The notes beneath the pieces are model-generated. The model was not told the origin of the DNA, ran no database searches, and was given only the letters and a program-made list of their open reading frames with translations. From the IMG/VR virus record IMGVR_UViG_2529293142_000033: a DNA stretch of 54,512 nucleotides, one strand, 5' to 3'. Source of the stretch: a virus. Lineage: Duplodnaviria > Heunggongvirae > Uroviricota > Caudoviricetes. The translations under genes were made by a program, and so were the position numbers. This document shows positions 1 to 54,512 of this stretch, piece by piece (position 1 is the first letter of the stretch; the number at the start of each line of letters is the position of its first letter).

Positions 1-708
1 ATGTGGGTCAATAAGTATATTGACGATTGCACTGATGAGGATTTAAACGATCGTGACTTTATTGCATCAGTTGTTGACCGGGCTATTTTTCATTTCGCGA
101 TTAATAGTATATGTAATCCTGGGGATAATAAAGATGCGACTCCCATTGAACAATGTACTTTTGATGTAGAAACTAAGAATGGCCTTCCCTCCACGGTTCA
201 GCTATTTTATGAGGAATCTAAGGATAATGAACCTTTAGCGAATATACATTTTCAAGCAATAGGTTCTGGTTTTTTAACGTTTGTTAATGCCTGCCAGGAA
301 CATGATGACAACAGCTTAAAATTATTTGCTTCGCTGTTAATTTCACTTTCATATTCTAGTGCCTACGCAGATTTATCAGAAACAGTGTATATTAATGAAA
401 ATAATGAGAGCTACCTGAAAGCTCAGTTTGAAAAATTATCTCAACGTGATATGAAGAAGTACCTGGGAGAGATGAAGCGTCTGGCTGATGGGGGAGAAAT
501 GAATTTTGATGGCTATCTGGATAAGATGTCACATCTGGTGAATGAAGGAACGCTCGATCCTGATATTTTAAGCAAAATGAGAGATGCTGCACCACAATTA
601 ATTAGCTTCGCGAAGTCGTTTGACCCAACCTCAAAGGAAGAGATTAAAATACTTACAGACACTTCTAAATTAATTTATGATTTGTTCGGGGTTAAATCGG
701 AGAAATAA
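1..708 (+). CDS. yjbM: uncharacterized host protein, YjbM-like (gene immediately upstream of dusA)
   Basis: 235-aa ORF beginning at window position 1; size and position upstream of dusA match the E. coli yjbL-yjbM-dusA neighbourhood (recalled synteny, not searched). Confidence 0.55.
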   Translation: MWVNKYIDDCTDEDLNDRDFIASVVDRAIFHFAINSICNPGDNKDATPIEQCTFDVETKNGLPSTVQLFYEESKDNEPLANIHFQAIGSGFLTFVNACQEHDDNSLKLFASLLISLSYSSAYADLSETVYINENNESYLKAQFEKLSQRDMKKYLGEMKRLADGGEMNFDGYLDKMSHLVNEGTLDPDILSKMRDAAPQLISFAKSFDPTSKEEIKILTDTSKLIYDLFGVKSEK

Positions 709-749
709 TATGTGAAGTTCTTCGATAGTATGGAAGGCATTATATAAAA

Positions 750-778
750 GGACCCAATATTTATTGGGTTCTTTTTTC
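750..778 (+). terminator. rho-independent terminator after yjbM-like gene
   Basis: hairpin acccaata..tattgggt followed by T-run. Confidence 0.5.
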
Positions 779-1070
779 TCTATCAATGCTATTAGCAGGG
801 AGATATATCACCAGAGTTTAATGTGTGATTTTTTATTTATCGTCGAACCTGGATTGTTTATCATTGGCCTTAACAAAGTTAACGGCTAATAAGATTATTT
901 CCATCACTTCGTGAGAGCTTCATGCCTTGAGAGGATCTCAATTTTCTTTTGCAATGAGACAGGCGCTTCCTGTTGTTATGGTATAGTACCCCGCTATTGA
1001 GCCTCCTGAATAGTGATGCTGAATAACATAACCCCATGATATATCGATAAAATAATCTCTACATTTGAAA

Positions 1071-1193
1071 ATGCACGGTAATTCTGAAATGCAAAAAATC
1101 AACCAAACCAGCGCAATGCCTGAAAAAACTGACGTTCACTGGAGTGGTCGGTTTAGCGTTGCACCAATGCTCGATAGGATGTACCGTTGTTGA
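1071..1193 (+). pseudogene. displaced original 5' end of dusA (attL side); first ~34 codons then unrelated sequence and stop
   Basis: translates MHGNSEMQKINQTSAMPEKTDVHWSGRFSVAPMLD then diverges; about 75-80 percent nt identity to the 5' end of the intact dusA at 53475; shared core atgctcga at 1167-1174. Confidence 0.8.
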
Positions 1194-1318
1194 AAAACAA
1201 GTAGTTATACACTCTGTGGGAGCCTATTGGGAACTCGGCGTTTTCATTTCAAGGTGTAATCCATACGCGGCTTAAGAATGAGATATAATGCGACTTTTAG
1301 TGTTCCGCTTGAGAGGCC

Positions 1319-1855
1319 ATGATGCTTACCCTGGACGAGATAGGTCAATCAGTACGTAACAATATCCAGTTGATTATTGATCATGTCGGCTTACCTCTTG
1401 CTGTTGGTCCGCTCAGTGATGATGATTACAAGATTCTGTGTGGTGGCTATGGTGAGCTTGAATGGGACTATGCGTTAAGTACCTATGGCAACTCCAGAGA
1501 AAAGTATGAGTTCTGCATAAAACTTGTTCAGCAAGGTCGGGTTCAGGGAATACCATCAGGAGCAGCAATTTGTGTTTATGGGGTTGAAGAAAACATCTTT
1601 CGTATCCATATGATCGAAAGGTTTTCTAGAGAAGATGAATCTCACCCATTGAAAGGGCGCATGGTTTTACTCACTCTTATGAGTGCTTTTATATTTTGTA
1701 AAGCTGTTGAATGTAAAGTTGTCCACATTGTAGAGCCAGTACCAGAACTGGTGCAGTATTACGAGTCTTTTGGTTTCCGCATGGAACAGTGCGGTTATGT
1801 GATGTCGGCAGTCATTGATGAGCTGCAGGATATCTTTCTTAAATTTGCTCAGTAG
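1319..1855 (+). CDS. hypothetical protein, possible GNAT-fold acetyltransferase-like (att-proximal cargo)
   Basis: 178-aa ORF; C-terminal segment (FRIHMIERF..VVHIVEP..LVQYYESFGF) resembles GNAT beta4-alpha3-beta5-alpha4 pattern without canonical QxxGxG; putative -10 tataat about 30 nt upstream. Confidence 0.5.
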   Translation: MMLTLDEIGQSVRNNIQLIIDHVGLPLAVGPLSDDDYKILCGGYGELEWDYALSTYGNSREKYEFCIKLVQQGRVQGIPSGAAICVYGVEENIFRIHMIERFSREDESHPLKGRMVLLTLMSAFIFCKAVECKVVHIVEPVPELVQYYESFGFRMEQCGYVMSAVIDELQDIFLKFAQ

Positions 1856-2051
1856 GTATAGACGAGAAGGGTCTACAAATTGTAGGATACCCGTCCAGAT
1901 TACCTTAAAGGTACATCTATGGCAGTCGTTTTGTGCTTAAACTACTAAGAAACGATGTCACCAATCGACATGATCGATTGGCATAAGTTAGCGAAACAAG
2001 CTAGCTTTAAAGAAAGGGTTAGAGACGCCTTTACTGTCTCGGGAGTTTTCT

Positions 2052-2225
2052 ATGAAAGATCAAAAAGCAACCAAGCCACAGGTTAAGTTCGACACAATGA
2101 AAGCATTCGCAGGTATGGGTGCTGCTGTTGAAGTTCTGATGAAGGCTGCTCCTAATGCGTTCACTCACGCTACTGTCTCTGGTAAAGAGCAGCAGGGTAA
2201 GCTTCGTCGTCGCAAAGCAGCATGA
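2052..2225 (+). CDS. small hypothetical protein (57 aa), Ala/Lys-rich
   Basis: ATG preceded by gggag RBS; followed immediately by strong terminator; below the 60-aa ORF-track cutoff. Confidence 0.4.
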   Translation: MKDQKATKPQVKFDTMKAFAGMGAAVEVLMKAAPNAFTHATVSGKEQQGKLRRRKAA

Positions 2226-2244
2226 TCATAGCTGGTGCTTTTTG

Positions 2245-2272
2245 AAAACCCGCCTTCAGGCGGGTTTTTTCT
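2245..2272. terminator. bidirectional rho-independent terminator
   Basis: aacccgcc ttca ggcgggtt hairpin with T-run on plus strand and partial U-run on minus strand; sits between convergent genes. Confidence 0.7.
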
Positions 2273-2581
2273 TTAGTGATGTTCTTTGCCCTTCTGTTTG
2301 ACTGTTCTGACCTGTTCCCACTCGATACGTCCTTCTTCTCGTCTTTTGTCTATGTATTCCGCAAGATCCTGAATATTGATGCAACGTTTTGCTTTTTGTG
2401 ATGTGCCGATGCGATATGTTGGAATGGGCAACTTACAAGCGTTTGCTTTTGCTTCTGCCGTGGCTGGACTCATACCAAAGTACTTTTGGCTAACTGCTGA
2501 GAGTTCAATGTTTGGGGTATTGAATTCAGCCATCAGTAAAAACAAGGTGTTCATAATTTTCTCCATCAAAACCGGCTGCAC
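2273..2581 (-). CDS. PrtN-like / excisionase-like small DNA-binding regulator
   Basis: 102-aa protein with KYFG..PATAE..LPIPTYRIG..IQDLAEYID pattern typical of pyocin-activator PrtN family. Confidence 0.65.
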   Translation of the reverse strand: MQPVLMEKIMNTLFLLMAEFNTPNIELSAVSQKYFGMSPATAEAKANACKLPIPTYRIGTSQKAKRCINIQDLAEYIDKRREEGRIEWEQVRTVKQKGKEHH

Positions 2582-2590
2582 CCGGGAAAA

Positions 2591-3163
2591 TCATAATTCT
2601 GTGCTGGTGGCAGGAATTAATTTCTGCCAGATAGCTGAAACATATTTGGCCTGATGACGAGCATCAGCCAGGGCGTTGTGCCGTTCGCCATCGAAAGGCA
2701 TGTCCATTTTTGGGTCGAATCCGATGGAACGCCCAAGCGTAACGATCGTGCGTACATCGTGATCATTCCAGTACGCCCATGGGCAGATTTGTCCTGCTCG
2801 TTCATAAGCTCCGCGTAAAATTACGTTGTCGAAGGTGGCCCCGTTACCCCAAACTTTTAAATATTTCGTATTGTCTGCGTGCCGATTAATGAAATGGCTC
2901 AGTTCAGAGAGTGCATCGCTGATCGACAAAGTATCATCAATACAGATTGCAGCTCGTGCTTCAGGGCTTTGTTTCAACCACCACAGGATGGTATCGCCGT
3001 CAGGTGTGGCCCCTTGCTCCATAGCACTGTCCAGGCTGACAACCGTATAGAATTCTTGTCCGATGTCTCCGGTTTCTGGAGTGAAGAACACCGCGCCAAT
3101 GGAAACGATCGGTGCATCCTTATTTTTCCCCATCGTCTCAAGGTCGATCATTAAGTTATTCAT
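2591..3163 (-). CDS. phage 3'-5' exonuclease (DnaQ-like fold)
   Basis: 190 aa; MIDLETMG..IVSIGAV N-terminal exo motif and conserved H/D residues downstream. Confidence 0.7.
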   Translation of the reverse strand: MNNLMIDLETMGKNKDAPIVSIGAVFFTPETGDIGQEFYTVVSLDSAMEQGATPDGDTILWWLKQSPEARAAICIDDTLSISDALSELSHFINRHADNTKYLKVWGNGATFDNVILRGAYERAGQICPWAYWNDHDVRTIVTLGRSIGFDPKMDMPFDGERHNALADARHQAKYVSAIWQKLIPATSTEL

Positions 3164-3474
3164 TACTTCACCTCCTGCGTTTCTTTGCTGCTGTGAATTC
3201 GCCAGTTACCGACGCCTTCCCATTCAAACTGGCGGTTACTAATTCGCGTCCAGCCCCTGCCGAAAAGCAAATCCAGATACCAGTATTTTAAAGTTCTGAT
3301 AATTGCTCTTACAGTTGGTTTGCATCCAGAAGTCTTTGATGCGCAAATAAAGCACCGAGTTATGCTCATGGCTTCTACAAAAGGCCAGATAAACCAAACC
3401 CAGATGCAAAGAGCCACGAACAACATGAGCGCGATGTTAGCCACTAAGCCAGACCAGTACAGATAATTGCTCAT
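3163..3474 (-). CDS. small membrane protein, hypothetical
   Basis: 103-aa ORF with two hydrophobic segments; start overlaps upstream gene stop. Confidence 0.45.
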   Translation of the reverse strand: MSNYLYWSGLVANIALMLFVALCIWVWFIWPFVEAMSITRCFICASKTSGCKPTVRAIIRTLKYWYLDLLFGRGWTRISNRQFEWEGVGNWRIHSSKETQEVK

Positions 3475-3857
3475 TGGTTGCCTCCACCTTGGCTCTGAAG
3501 CATGGCAGCGCGGCAGGCGTTCCAGCCATCAACATACCCAGCCATGATATATCGATTAAAACCCACCTCTTTCTGTGCGCGTGCCAGATTCATTTCCTCC
3601 GGCACGTGTACTGGCTGAGCTATATACAGCGGCTGAACATACCAACCCTTTGATAACCAACTGTCAGCAACGTTTTTACTCCGTGTTATTGCCGGAATAC
3701 CTAAGCCATTGTCTGAATGCAGCCATGCCACCGGCTCCTCTTCTAGCGATGCCAGAGCAATTTCATAAGCACGGCGCTCAATATCGTCTCGAACCTCTAG
3801 GCTGCTGATTCGTTCTTTGATTTCTTTAATCAGTTCTTTATTGGTAAATGTGGTCAT
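3471..3857 (-). CDS. hypothetical phage protein
   Basis: 128-aa ORF in operon context, coupled to neighbours. Confidence 0.5.
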   Translation of the reverse strand: MTTFTNKELIKEIKERISSLEVRDDIERRAYEIALASLEEEPVAWLHSDNGLGIPAITRSKNVADSWLSKGWYVQPLYIAQPVHVPEEMNLARAQKEVGFNRYIMAGYVDGWNACRAAMLQSQGGGNQ

Positions 3858-4219
3858 TATGCTCCAGCCTCCGGCGCTTTTGGCATTACTGCCCAGTGAG
3901 TGATATTGAAGTTTTCAAGGTCCCCGACCTGAAATGTCCACTGCCATTCTCCGGTTTCTTTTTGTCCCCAGGTGTACCAGAGAGAACGCCAGCCAATCAG
4001 CCAGCCTTCTCCGTTAGCATCAAATAACAGAACACTTTCATTTGCTGGTGGCAGTTCAGCTGACACTGGTATTATTTTGTTTTCCAGTGCCGCACATTTA
4101 GCTTCAAGCGCGTCGAATTTACGTACTAGGTACTCAGCATTTGTTTCGTTCACTTTCAGATCTCGCGGTACACATTTCCCGCGAAGAAACCCTTCCATTT
4201 CGAAAACATTCATGCGCAT
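3857..4219 (-). CDS. hypothetical phage protein (Trp-rich C-terminal domain, DUF551-like)
   Basis: 120-aa ORF, operon context. Confidence 0.5.
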   Translation of the reverse strand: MRMNVFEMEGFLRGKCVPRDLKVNETNAEYLVRKFDALEAKCAALENKIIPVSAELPPANESVLLFDANGEGWLIGWRSLWYTWGQKETGEWQWTFQVGDLENFNITHWAVMPKAPEAGA

Positions 4220-4746
4220 TTGCGTAACTCCGATAACTCGTTAAAACGTTCCATAAACATCCCGTAGGCATGGCTAGGTGCCAGTGGAATCACGTTGAAC
4301 ATCTCTGTTGCCGGGATGCCTTCCAGTACAGGCCAGAAAGAGCCATCATCAAGCCCGAGATCGCGGCGTTCGGTTGCCAGCATGATAAGATCGGCATATT
4401 TCACGGGCGTACTCATAACTGGGGGTAACCCGTATTTCTCACGGATTACGGCGTCAATTTTTTCTTCCATCCGTTTATAGTCAGGAAGAAGGCGTTTCAG
4501 TGGAGCGGGAATATCCTGGCAATACGCTTCTGTTGCATCATGCATTAACGCTTCAAAAGCAAATTCCTGCGGCACCAGCTGGCTGCAAAGCACCGCATGT
4601 TGGGCGACACTGTAGAAGTGAGAAAGATGACCGGCAAAGCGGCAGATATTTGAAAGGGAAACCGCGATATCGTTAATCACGATGTCGTCTTTATTTATCT
4701 TGTCATAATAAAAATGCTTCCCGGAAAAAGTTTTAATAAATGACAT
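4210..4746 (-). CDS. HD-domain phosphohydrolase (YfdR-like 5'-deoxynucleotidase)
   Basis: HD motif region (HFYSVAQHAV..EALMHDATEAY); start placed at ATG 4746 with ggagaa RBS rather than the longer ORF start at 4773. Confidence 0.7.
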   Translation of the reverse strand: MSFIKTFSGKHFYYDKINKDDIVINDIAVSLSNICRFAGHLSHFYSVAQHAVLCSQLVPQEFAFEALMHDATEAYCQDIPAPLKRLLPDYKRMEEKIDAVIREKYGLPPVMSTPVKYADLIMLATERRDLGLDDGSFWPVLEGIPATEMFNVIPLAPSHAYGMFMERFNELSELRKCA

Positions 4747-52288: not shown

Positions 52289-53386
52289 TCAAGAGGTCTT
52301 GTTTCTGCTCCTTTGGAGTTCTTCAAAACGATTATGTAAAGATTTCGGATACAGTTCGGTATATACCTGCCATAGCACGTTTAATGAACGATGCCCTGTA
52401 ACCTGAGCGACTTCCTCAATACTAAAACCAGCCTCAAATAAGCGACTTGCCCCTTCCCTACGCAAATCATGGTATCGCAGATCTTTAATACCTAATTTGC
52501 TTCTTACCCTCTGAAATCCTGCGGTAACAGAAGTGCTGTTATATGGAAAAATGAATTCTGATTTTTGGGGTTGTTGCTGGACGATATCCCAGGCTTCCCC
52601 AAGCAAGGCAACTTTCATATGGTTGCCTTCCTTTTTACGTGGATCTTTCCTATCTCTTACTAGTATAGATTTTTGTTCCTGGTCGAGATCTTCCCATCGT
52701 AACCGGCATACTTCTCCAATTCGCATACAGGACCACACAGAAAATTTGAGGATATCAACGAACGGAATTTTTGAGCATTTATGAGTAGATCGTTGTTGAA
52801 GGCCTTCAATGAGCATGTCCAGTTCATCAGATGCTGGTCTACGATTACGACGGTTTGATTTACCAATCAAACCGAGTTTAAGTAGATATGGACGAGCGCT
52901 TTTCGCCGGGTTTGATGTGTAATTGATTCCGTATACAGGTTTTGCCGCATCCAGAACACTGCCAAGATAACTAACATCGTGGCTGACTGTTGCTGGGCCT
53001 GCACCAGCGTTGTTTCTTAGCCTGCAATGTTCAATTACGTCATTTTCTGTCAGTTCAGATAGTTTGATCGCGGAGATGTCGCTATCCATAAGCAGTTCCA
53101 GCACATATCTTTTAGTACGGCCTGCTTTACCTCCGGCATTTGGGTCATTTAAATATTTGTGTAGTAAGTCACGGACTGTAAGTCCGTCAACAGCATTTGA
53201 TGATGGAATGCCATATAGATCTAATTCCATCACTTTCTGTGCGCCCCATGTTTTGGCATGAGCATGTTTAGGGAATGTTTTGCTTTCCCTGTAAGTGATA
53301 ACACCTTTTTCTTTGATAATCACATTACAGCGATAGCGTGGTGTGCCATCGGATTTTAGTCGTTTCTCTATGTTATAGTACGCCAT
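52289..53386 (-). CDS. tyrosine-type site-specific integrase (dusA-associated)
   Basis: 365 aa, C-terminal catalytic region with conserved R..H..R..Y pattern (..DLRYHDLRREGASRLFEAGF..VAQVTGHRSLNVLWQVYTELYP); immediately adjacent and divergent to dusA. Confidence 0.9.
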   Translation of the reverse strand: MAYYNIEKRLKSDGTPRYRCNVIIKEKGVITYRESKTFPKHAHAKTWGAQKVMELDLYGIPSSNAVDGLTVRDLLHKYLNDPNAGGKAGRTKRYVLELLMDSDISAIKLSELTENDVIEHCRLRNNAGAGPATVSHDVSYLGSVLDAAKPVYGINYTSNPAKSARPYLLKLGLIGKSNRRNRRPASDELDMLIEGLQQRSTHKCSKIPFVDILKFSVWSCMRIGEVCRLRWEDLDQEQKSILVRDRKDPRKKEGNHMKVALLGEAWDIVQQQPQKSEFIFPYNSTSVTAGFQRVRSKLGIKDLRYHDLRREGASRLFEAGFSIEEVAQVTGHRSLNVLWQVYTELYPKSLHNRFEELQRSRNKTS

Positions 53387-53474: not shown

Positions 53475-54512
53475 ATGCACGATAATCATGAAACACAAAA
53501 AATTAATCAAACCAGCGTGATGCCGGAAAAAACTGGTGTTTACTGGAATTCTCGGTTTAGCATTGCTCCTATGCTCGACTGGACGGACAGACATTGCCGC
53601 TATTTCTTGCGTCTGCTTTCCCGCAATACGTTGCTGTATACCGAAATGGTGACCACAGGGGCGATTATTCACGGTAAAGGTGATTATCTGGCGTACAGTG
53701 AAGAAGAACATCCGGTAGCGTTGCAACTGGGCGGTAGCGATCCGGCGGCGCTGGCGCAGTGTGCAAAGCTGGCAGAAGCGCGCGGATATGATGAGATCAA
53801 CCTGAATGTCGGCTGCCCGTCTGACCGGGTGCAGAACGGCATGTTTGGTGCGTGTCTGATGGGTAATGCGCAGCTGGTTGCCGACTGTGTGAAAGCGATG
53901 CGCGATGTGGTGTCGATTCCAGTGACGGTGAAAACGCGTATTGGCATCGATGACCAGGACAGCTATGAATTTCTCTGCGATTTCATCAACACTGTTTCCG
54001 GCAAAGGCGAGTGTGAGATGTTTATCATCCACGCACGTAAAGCCTGGCTTTCGGGGTTAAGCCCGAAAGAAAACCGTGAAATCCCGCCGCTCGATTATCC
54101 GCGTGTGTATCAACTGAAGCGTGACTTTCCGCATCTGACAATGTCGATTAACGGTGGTATCAAGTCGCTGGAAGAGGCCAAAGCACACCTGCAACATATG
54201 GATGGCGTGATGGTCGGGCGCGAGGCGTATCAGAATCCGGGTATTCTGGCGGCAGTAGACCGGGAGATCTTTGGTTCCTCGGATACCGATGCCGATCCGG
54301 TGGCGGTAGTGCGCGCCATGTATCCGTACATTGAGCGTGAACTCAGCCAGGGGACGTATCTCGGCCATATTACCCGGCATATGTTGGGCTTGTTCCAGGG
54401 TATTCCTGGCGCGCGGCAGTGGCGGCGTTATTTAAGTGAAAATGCCCATAAAGCGGGTGCAGACATTAATGTGCTGGAACACGCGCTCAAACTGGTGGCG
54501 GATAAGCGTTAA
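53475..54512 (+). CDS. dusA: tRNA-dihydrouridine synthase A, full length with diverged 5' end
   Basis: 345 aa; body matches DusA; first ~34 codons differ from the displaced host fragment at 1071-1174. Confidence 0.9.

Follow-up and report, generated by a model that had tools for sequence, protein, structure and literature searches.

The closest described counterparts of the locus considered here are the TacAT, AtaRT, KacAT and ItaRT toxin-antitoxin (TA) systems, two-gene modules of mobile elements whose GNAT toxins share a conserved Tyr in a YxxxGF motif of helix alpha4. In TacT the replacement Y140F abolishes toxicity and positive patches are needed by the toxin to dock tRNA (PMC4942678), and the enzyme also acetylates its partner TacA at K44 (PMC5449658). 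A further point of comparison is the gpA-gpQ locus of P2, an anti-phage hotspot that holds old and tin (Rousset et al., 2022, PMC9122126). The present analysis concerns two adjacent genes, ORF178 and ORF57 (ORF, open reading frame), of the virus record IMGVR_UViG_2529293142_000033; the window, i.e., the whole stretch of 54,512 nt that was analysed, is a segment of an Escherichia coli chromosome with a lambdoid prophage. ORF178 (1319..1855, plus strand; phrog_4350) encodes an acidic (isoelectric point, pI, 4.8) and divergent GNAT-fold protein, and ORF57 (2052..2225, plus strand; phrog_2741) a basic (pI 10.5), mostly disordered protein of 57 aa. The two genes are inherited together as an obligate unit, which is mobile across unrelated phage, plasmid and integrative and conjugative element (ICE) contexts. 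Tentatively, and with a confidence that falls a little short of an even chance, we favour the reading that it is a TA-like or abortive-infection module in reverse order, in which an acidic GNAT protein would be the effector and ORF57, as a labile protein, its neutraliser.

The association between the genes was examined in 18 loci from GTDB genomes, 80 from IMG/VR and further annotated loci of E. coli, Salmonella and Enterobacter, and pairs were counted wherever an ORF178 homologue was present and the DNA extended far enough downstream of it. In 116 of these 116 loci the ORF178 homologue is followed, after 93-197 nt and in the same orientation, by an intact ORF57 homologue (53-61 aa). Reading by eye showed ORF57 also in the loci that have diverged most (L023, L024, Shewanella, Edwardsiella and phage Eeyore). 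The two proteins diverge jointly, their identities to those of the window (ORF178/ORF57) being 72/89, 66/79, 59/56, 55/38 and 40/38%, and they display charge complementarity throughout both families, as the ORF178 proteins are acidic (pI 4.1-4.9 and net charge -8 to -16 in 16 members, about -10 in the window) and the ORF57 proteins basic (pI 9.6-10.8, net charge +5 to +9).

The dependence is one-way. Of 5426 complete genomes of E. coli, 358 (~6.6%) contain ORF178, at an identity of at least 99% in all of them, and 562 contain the ORF57 block; the two occur together in 356 genomes and ORF57 without ORF178 in ~204, and no genome of this set was seen to carry ORF178 without ORF57. Two adjacent and co-oriented genes on mobile elements, of which the presumed toxin is never alone and the orphan partner is tolerated, correspond to the generic picture of a TA pair. 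The order of the genes is other than the classical antitoxin-then-toxin arrangement, as had been pointed out in the initial annotation of this DNA, with the small partner downstream of the enzyme. Only one disrupted pair was noticed, in E. coli O111:H8 08-4455 (L135), where IS1203 is inserted in ORF178 at the equivalent of ~1460 and ORF57, the excisionase-like gene next to it (xis) and the flanks are intact.

Both ORFs are present where they had been annotated and correspond to RefSeq WP_000956557.1 (177 aa, from 1322) and WP_000654815.1, each named 'hypothetical protein'. The second ATG of ORF178, at 1322, is the likelier start, since the ribosome-binding site GAGAGG (1311..1316, plus strand; GAGG is invariant in the upstream alignment) lies 5 nt before it and the homologues begin with MLTL. 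Neither protein matched Pfam or NCBIfam at E <= 1, the function of phrog_4350 is unknown in PHROGs, and comparison of ORF178 with PDB sequences, as single sequences and as profiles, gave nothing meaningful. A profile search retrieved only 94 relatives among 1.84 billion representative proteins; a few UniRef names read 'N-acetyltransferase domain-containing', and ten distant relatives had no Pfam match. Literature searches on the pair by accession, phage name and topic found nothing.

Structure prediction, which had been proposed as a check on the 178-aa protein, produced a confident GNAT fold (AlphaFold2 model, pLDDT 86.6, pTM 0.85). All of the 60 structural matches listed are GNAT-fold proteins, in agreement with the viral structure library, and they include NatD/Naa40 (match score 12.2), Naa20 (11.4), the tRNA-acetylating toxin TacT3 (11.4), RimI (11.2) and 7byy, a 'bacterial toxin' acetyltransferase (11.0). 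The model has the mixed alpha/beta topology of the GNAT fold, beta1-alpha1-alpha2-beta2-beta3-beta4-alpha3-beta5-alpha4-beta6, and the alignment with NatD takes in 146 of the 178 residues, so that the GNAT likeness initially ascribed to the C-terminal half was right as to the fold and too narrow as to its extent, which is the whole protein. The beta4-alpha3 loop reads HPLKGRM (H109-P-L-K-G113-R-M115); 28 homologues all share its H, P, L, G and M, which are kept less strictly in distant relatives. Only the central Gly of this loop fits the pyrophosphate motif Q/R-x-x-G-x-G/A, and the earlier remark that a canonical acetyl-CoA loop is missing is therefore true in the strict sense. Tyr148 (YYESFGF), invariant in the family down to relatives at ~20% identity, is the counterpart of TacT Tyr140 and stands at the position of the catalytic or orienting Tyr with which alpha4 starts; hhalign aligns LVQYYESFGF of ORF178 with AIALYESLGF of RimI, and thus Tyr148 with Tyr115, at a probability which is low when taken alone and in agreement with the fold. 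ORF178 belongs to the GNAT superfamily by its fold and its catalytic-type Tyr, while curated sequence models and the CoA-loop motif fail to recognise it, and we conclude that it is probably a catalytically competent but atypical acyltransferase.

With TacAT, AtaRT, KacAT and ItaRT the pair has in common this Tyr in the YxxxGF motif and the two-gene organisation on mobile elements; in addition, the small partner may be inhibitor and substrate at once, as is TacA with its K44. Conversely, ORF178 has no sequence similarity to the toxins of these four systems or to any Pfam acetyltransferase model, and its acetyl-CoA loop is non-canonical. The pair also differs from TacAT, AtaRT and KacAT in that there is no antitoxin of the ribbon-helix-helix/DUF1778 type and no upstream ORF, this place being taken by the left attachment site (attL), and in that ORF57 is located 93-197 nt downstream and has no DNA-binding fold. 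Finally, ORF178 is strongly acidic and, with net charge as a proxy, would lack the positive surface used by TacT for tRNA docking. ORF178 may act in a similar way but is not a member of the TacT/AtaT/KacT family. Its identity to NatD/Naa40, Naa20 and RimI is ~10%, and unlike these enzymes it has no Q/RxxGxG/A loop, is borne by mobile elements (phages, plasmids and ICEs), is always accompanied by a 57-aa partner of its own, and has no evident housekeeping role.

ORF57 matched no family besides phrog_2741 (function unknown), and searches of PDB sequences gave no meaningful match. It can nevertheless be regarded as a real gene, because ~30 distinct intact variants of 53-61 aa were found, the ratio of nonsynonymous to synonymous substitution rates (dN/dS) against Enterobacteriaceae homologues is 0.11-0.24, which denotes purifying selection, and a good Shine-Dalgarno sequence (GGGAG, 2041-2045) precedes it. 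The AlphaFold2 model, of low confidence (pLDDT 60), consists of a single helix at residues 15-32 with disordered basic tails, and the helix is the best-conserved part of the protein. The conserved pattern is FDT..aF..MGaAv.vL.KAAP..F, followed by a variable linker, (Q/H)G plus basic residues and ...KAA-COOH; in the window the C-terminal tail is ...GKLRRRKAA, and the AA end is kept in homologues down to 38% identity. Known ClpX degrons include ...LAA (ssrA), ...VAA (RseA) and RRKKAI (MuA) (PMC8138137), which the basic ...KAA tail of ORF57 resembles; this is a resemblance only and may serve as a lead.

The pair was found in at least four different and unrelated insertion contexts. As to conservation across dusA-integrated elements, another check that had been proposed, sister prophages hold other cargo at this place; of the 116 pair loci, only 77 share the context of a dusA prophage with xis. 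In lambdoid prophages and in phage Eeyore the pair also occurs between the region of a Q-like late regulator and a methylase-holin-lysozyme cassette. It lies at the margin of the element in Shewanella (a prophage) and in Pseudescherichia (prophage or tailocin-like), and in Edwardsiella it fills the gpA-gpQ defence hotspot of a P2-like prophage, with gpA on one side and the portal gene on the other. Like the morons of the P2 gpA-gpQ hotspot, the pair is a cassette bounded by promoter and terminator between conserved phage genes and is variable in sister phages, but none of the hotspot systems described (PMC9122126) matches it. A predicted promoter and terminator, a position between conserved phage genes and variability among close relatives are the marks of a phage moron, and the earlier description of the pair as accessory cargo with its own -10 element, which is conserved, and its own terminator holds in this respect. 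More distant relatives of ORF178 (~20-27% identity) are carried by an ICE of Yersinia ruckeri, a plasmid of Enterobacter kobei and a conjugative plasmid of Citrobacter, where the gene adjoins a RelE/ParE module, and a basic ORF of 57-67 aa lies just downstream of each of the three. The small ORFs beside the distant GNAT relatives (roughly 20-25% identity) have pI values of 9.3-10.9, all but one (7.8), and homology between them and ORF57 was undetectable with hhalign (probability <1%); the likeness is confined to size, basic charge and adjacency, and an extension of the pair to the plasmid and ICE relatives is only suggestive.

Some individual loci of these groups showed further particularities. 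In Photorhabdus (L026/L027, 8001-8807) the pair interrupts a contractile-tail cluster midway, with a Pam3_gp18-like gene on one side and baseplate genes on the other; head genes were not visible within the 16 kb read, and the element may be a tailocin. The record of phage Eeyore (L136, PP925821) annotates several ORFs of 30-38 aa at the site, ~3880-4040, where an unannotated ORF57 homologue (MEMKKERLFDT...QGRRRVREAA) is located ~330 nt downstream of the ORF178 homologue. Small Rop-type plasmids (L132-L134) encode a GNAT relative of 186 aa with a terminator right after it and a basic ORF of 54 aa upstream, a gene order opposite to that of the prophage cassettes. Identical copies of ORF178 are also present on records labelled as plasmids, NZ_CP126947.1 and three from E. 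coli of 37-44 kb (H136-H139), with sizes of 37-44 kb and 205 kb; the phage-sized ones of 37-44 kb may be assemblies of excised or episomal prophages.

In dusA-integrating lambdoid prophages the interval between attL and xis is a cargo hotspot. Phage Lys8385Vzw and strain AR_0085 have in this slot a Panacea-domain antitoxin, a protein of 128-139 aa and the same ORF57; one sister prophage carries these genes together with a CoiA-like nuclease, others have Panacea pairs without ORF57, and in yet another the slot holds a 179-aa protein and a YafO-family toxin. The Panacea and YafO pairs thus resemble ORF178/ORF57 in occupying exactly the same slot of otherwise near-identical dusA prophages as same-strand two-gene cassettes, some of them followed by the same ORF57 block and terminator, but their proteins are unrelated and ORF178 has neither a Panacea nor a YafO domain. 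With an ORF57-xis query, 741 E. coli genomes match, roughly half of which have ORF178 and ORF57. Absence of the ORFs from near relatives with identical flanks had initially been named as grounds for rejecting the proposal; such absence was found for ORF178 and leaves the proposal standing, because swappable cargo should be missing from some relatives with identical flanks. The DNA common to the ORF178 and Panacea cassettes resumes at 2039, 13 nt before the start codon of ORF57, and consists of the ORF57-terminator block alone; a junction at this point would fit recombination of the ORF57 block independent of ORF178. Across Enterobacteriaceae the block from ORF57 to the terminator (~2040-2270) has 85-96% DNA identity, as against 55-78% for ORF178 and 40-60% for the spacers, and synonymous divergence (dS) is 0.33-0.54 for ORF57 and saturated for ORF178; either the block recombines independently of ORF178 or it is under constraint at the nucleotide level. 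The equivalent slots that were read (L003, L005, L006, L007, L041, L042 and L043) contain three different Panacea-antitoxin pairs, the YafO pair and one CoiA-like nuclease. The 179-aa partner of YafO was considered as a relative of ORF178 and discarded, as there is no similarity between them.

The proposal of a TA or abortive-infection module is based on the presence of two small co-oriented genes on phages, plasmids and ICEs, on their patchy distribution with an effector that is never alone and a partner that is tolerated alone, on the partner being small, disordered and possibly protease-labile, and on the slots, which otherwise hold TA or defence genes. The initial annotation had suggested a toxin of a TA pair or an anti-defence enzyme; a TA or defence-type role is the best-supported reading, and that interpretation as a whole is partly supported. 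ORF178 would be the effector, and ORF57 would bind it through the conserved helix and keep it inactive. ORF57 would in turn be short-lived, in view of the resemblance of its basic ...KAA tail to ClpX degrons. Transcription of both genes in the lysogen would start at the cassette promoter, probably with an additional contribution of read-through from the host dusA promoter across attL. If the supply of ORF57 were to stop, for example because the element is lost or an infecting phage shuts off expression, unbound ORF178 could acylate a basic cellular or phage protein and cause growth arrest, the outcome of which would be retention of the element or abortive infection/exclusion. A basic protein is a more likely target than an aminoacyl-tRNA, because ORF178 has a net charge of about -10 and TacT uses positive patches. 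More doubtful is the narrower proposal that the pair represents an undescribed mobile TA/abortive-infection family, in which an acidic GNAT acylates a basic protein, a 57-aa partner with a ClpXP degron is encoded downstream, and the ORF57-terminator block is exchangeable with Panacea cassettes. If TA or exclusion is indeed its function, the pair would bring in a new class of GNAT effector, with a new partner and gene order and probably a target unlike that of TacT/AtaT, and the attL-xis slot of dusA-integrating lambdoid phages would be a hotspot that can be mined for TA and defence systems. The cassette is present in many O157:H7, O111 and O145 strains as well as in Salmonella, Enterobacter, Photorhabdus and other Enterobacterales.

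Several points weigh against this proposal. ORF178 is intact and at least 99% identical in 357 E. coli genomes, and this uniformity, with no decay, gives no sign of toxicity. The use of acetyl-CoA by ORF178 is only presumptive because the pyrophosphate loop is non-canonical, and ORF178, ORF57 and a small ORF of the spacer (ORF43) had no match in PADLOC-DB v2 at E <= 1. A structured spacer of 93-197 nt and an effector-first order are unusual for type II TA systems, and the usual TA autoregulation is left unexplained since ORF57 has no DNA-binding domain. The higher identity of ORF57 (~90%, vs ~68% for ORF178) would fit a constraint imposed on ORF57 by something other than ORF178, and the asymmetry by which the enzyme is never alone fits an enzyme with a dedicated substrate equally well. 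Toxicity, binding and lability, as well as acyl donor and target, are, moreover, properties that we infer.

An enzyme with a dedicated substrate is the main rival explanation, even though we hold it to be unlikely. In such a system ORF57 would be the working small protein, engaged in lysogenic conversion or superinfection exclusion with a conserved host or phage target, and ORF178 a non-toxic dedicated acetyltransferase; N-alpha or N-epsilon acetylation would tune the activity or stability of ORF57, in the manner of RimI, RimJ, RimL and NatD, each with one basic substrate. The best structural matches of ORF178 (NatD, Naa20 and RimI) are indeed dedicated protein N-terminal acetyltransferases, TacT acetylates its partner TacA (PMC5449658), and an acidic enzyme beside a basic, disordered and Lys-rich partner would suit this arrangement. 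The explanation is weakened, however, because neither a lysine nor the N-terminus of ORF57 is invariant: the 'GK' of the tail is GR in Shewanella and GP in L024, and the N-termini differ (MK.., MSK.., MKH..). The intact ORF57 found without ORF178 in ~204 genomes and its far better conservation in Enterobacteriaceae, in both DNA and protein, would agree with this explanation, but it is the helix and not the modifiable tail that is best conserved, and the alternative occupants of the slot that can be named are all TA pairs, bar one extra CoiA-like gene.

The remaining explanations are less probable. The GNAT anti-CRISPR AcrVA5 acetylates and inactivates Cas12a, and ORF178, which is also phage-borne and of GNAT fold, could acetylate and inactivate a host immune protein with ORF57 as an accessory or regulatory factor. 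In the slot between Q and the lysis genes the pair would be expressed in lytic growth, and the relative on the Yersinia ruckeri ICE lies ~3.8 kb upstream of an ArdA-type antirestriction gene; such hints from the context are weak, and an anti-defence role, possible as it is, seems improbable to us. The att-proximal position next to a silent xis and the cassette's own promoter and terminator suggest expression in the lysogen, which disfavours this role; anti-defence is also less expected in tailocin-like tail clusters and on small plasmids, where the pair is equally found, the other occupants of the slot are TA modules and not anti-defence genes, and ORF57 has no helix-turn-helix typical of anti-CRISPR-associated regulators. 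A reversal of roles, in a type VII-like fashion, with ORF57 as a small basic toxin and the GNAT ORF178 as its enzymatic antitoxin, has a precedent in the TopAI (YjhX)/YjhQ pair of E. coli, where it is the GNAT member that acts as antitoxin. Toxicity does occur among small basic proteins, a GNAT would neutralise their positive charge, and pairing is obligate from the side of ORF178; still, an unprotected toxin should not persist in orphan copies, and in ~204 E. coli genomes that lack ORF178 the ORF57 gene and its ribosome-binding site are intact, as is ORF57 in the strain in which ORF178 is disrupted by IS1203, so that we consider this reversal very improbable. Lastly, the distance of 196 nt and the shortness of ORF57, which has no database domain, could bring to mind two unrelated hypothetical genes that are neighbours by chance, or an ORF57 that is no gene. 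This is effectively refuted by the co-occurrence in 116 of 116 loci across genera and insertion contexts, by the joint divergence of the two genes and by the ~30 intact variants and low dN/dS of ORF57.

Regarding the control of the cassette, a -10-like hexamer TATAAT, the putative cassette promoter, lies at 1285..1290 (plus strand), in accordance with the initial placement of a -10 element near 1287. In six homologous cassettes, which come from five other genera and from different contexts, its aligned counterpart is TACAAT or TAAACT, ~30 nt before the ATG. Farther upstream the sequence of those cassettes is unrelated, and the alignment is better evidence than a consensus match. A matching -35 element was not recognised by the consensus scan, and a full promoter was not called. 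A conserved box, CTTTTAC(A/C)AA, is present ~65-70 nt before the start of the ORF178 homologue in L009-L012, L016 and L037; the version in the window from E. coli is degenerate (CATTTCAAGG, 1245-1254). At ~33 nt upstream of the conserved -10 the box is too far away for a -35 element, and it may be an activator or alternative-sigma site.

The spacer between the genes (1856..2051, plus strand; 196 nt) contains inverted repeats that are conserved across genera, CCAATCGA/TCGATTGG at 1961-1981 and a further one at 1985-2007, besides a GAGAC/GTCTC repeat at 2022-2040 immediately before the Shine-Dalgarno sequence of ORF57. These repeats could be DNA operators or a structure of the 5' untranslated region. 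The covariation term of RNAalifold (+2.86) gave no support to a structured RNA in the spacer, with compensatory changes in 4 pairs only, and in Rfam nothing came above threshold, the weaker matches being to the terminator hairpin. We do not count ORF43 (1955-2086) as a third gene: only near-identical loci contain it, and the spacer of other loci has indels that are not multiples of three. The cassette is closed by an intrinsic terminator (2244..2269, plus strand), an 11-bp GC-rich stem followed by U6 whose hairpin faces the convergent xis; a comparable terminator follows the ORF57 homologues in every other context read. It had initially been described as strong and bidirectional, which the stem and U6 bear out for the plus strand; on the minus-strand side of the stem only UUUUC follows.

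The pair is situated in a prophage that resembles mEp460 and is integrated at dusA, ~150 nt inward of attL. An alignment of attL, attR and the attP of mEp460 places the att crossover at ~1167-1175, directly inside which the pair lies, as the initial annotation had stated of the left prophage end. Upstream, a gene for a DUF2713 protein occupies 1-708 and is followed by the first 29 codons of dusA (1089-1174), which form part of a 34-codon ORF across attL (1089..1193, plus strand), the 5' remnant of the host gene; RefSeq entries of relatives name it a partial tRNA-dihydrouridine synthase. At the right end of the lambdoid prophage a dusA-type tyrosine integrase (52289-53386, minus strand) precedes an intact dusA (53475-54512 in the window) whose 5' end is supplied by the phage. 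Integration thus swaps the native 5' end of dusA, and with the remnant left behind at attL the native promoter of dusA is directed towards the cargo cassette. A sequence scan found no terminator-like site between 775 and 1672, so read-through from this promoter into ORF178 may take place in the lysogen. The right border of the variable slot, outside the cassette, is the PrtN-family excisionase-like gene xis (2273..2581, minus strand; Pfam PF11112, E 2.6e-23), which is annotated as an excisionase in mEp460. In the circular form of the phage the pair would sit between int/attP and this gene, and gp23 and gp24 of mEp460 are the same two genes at 99.4% identity.

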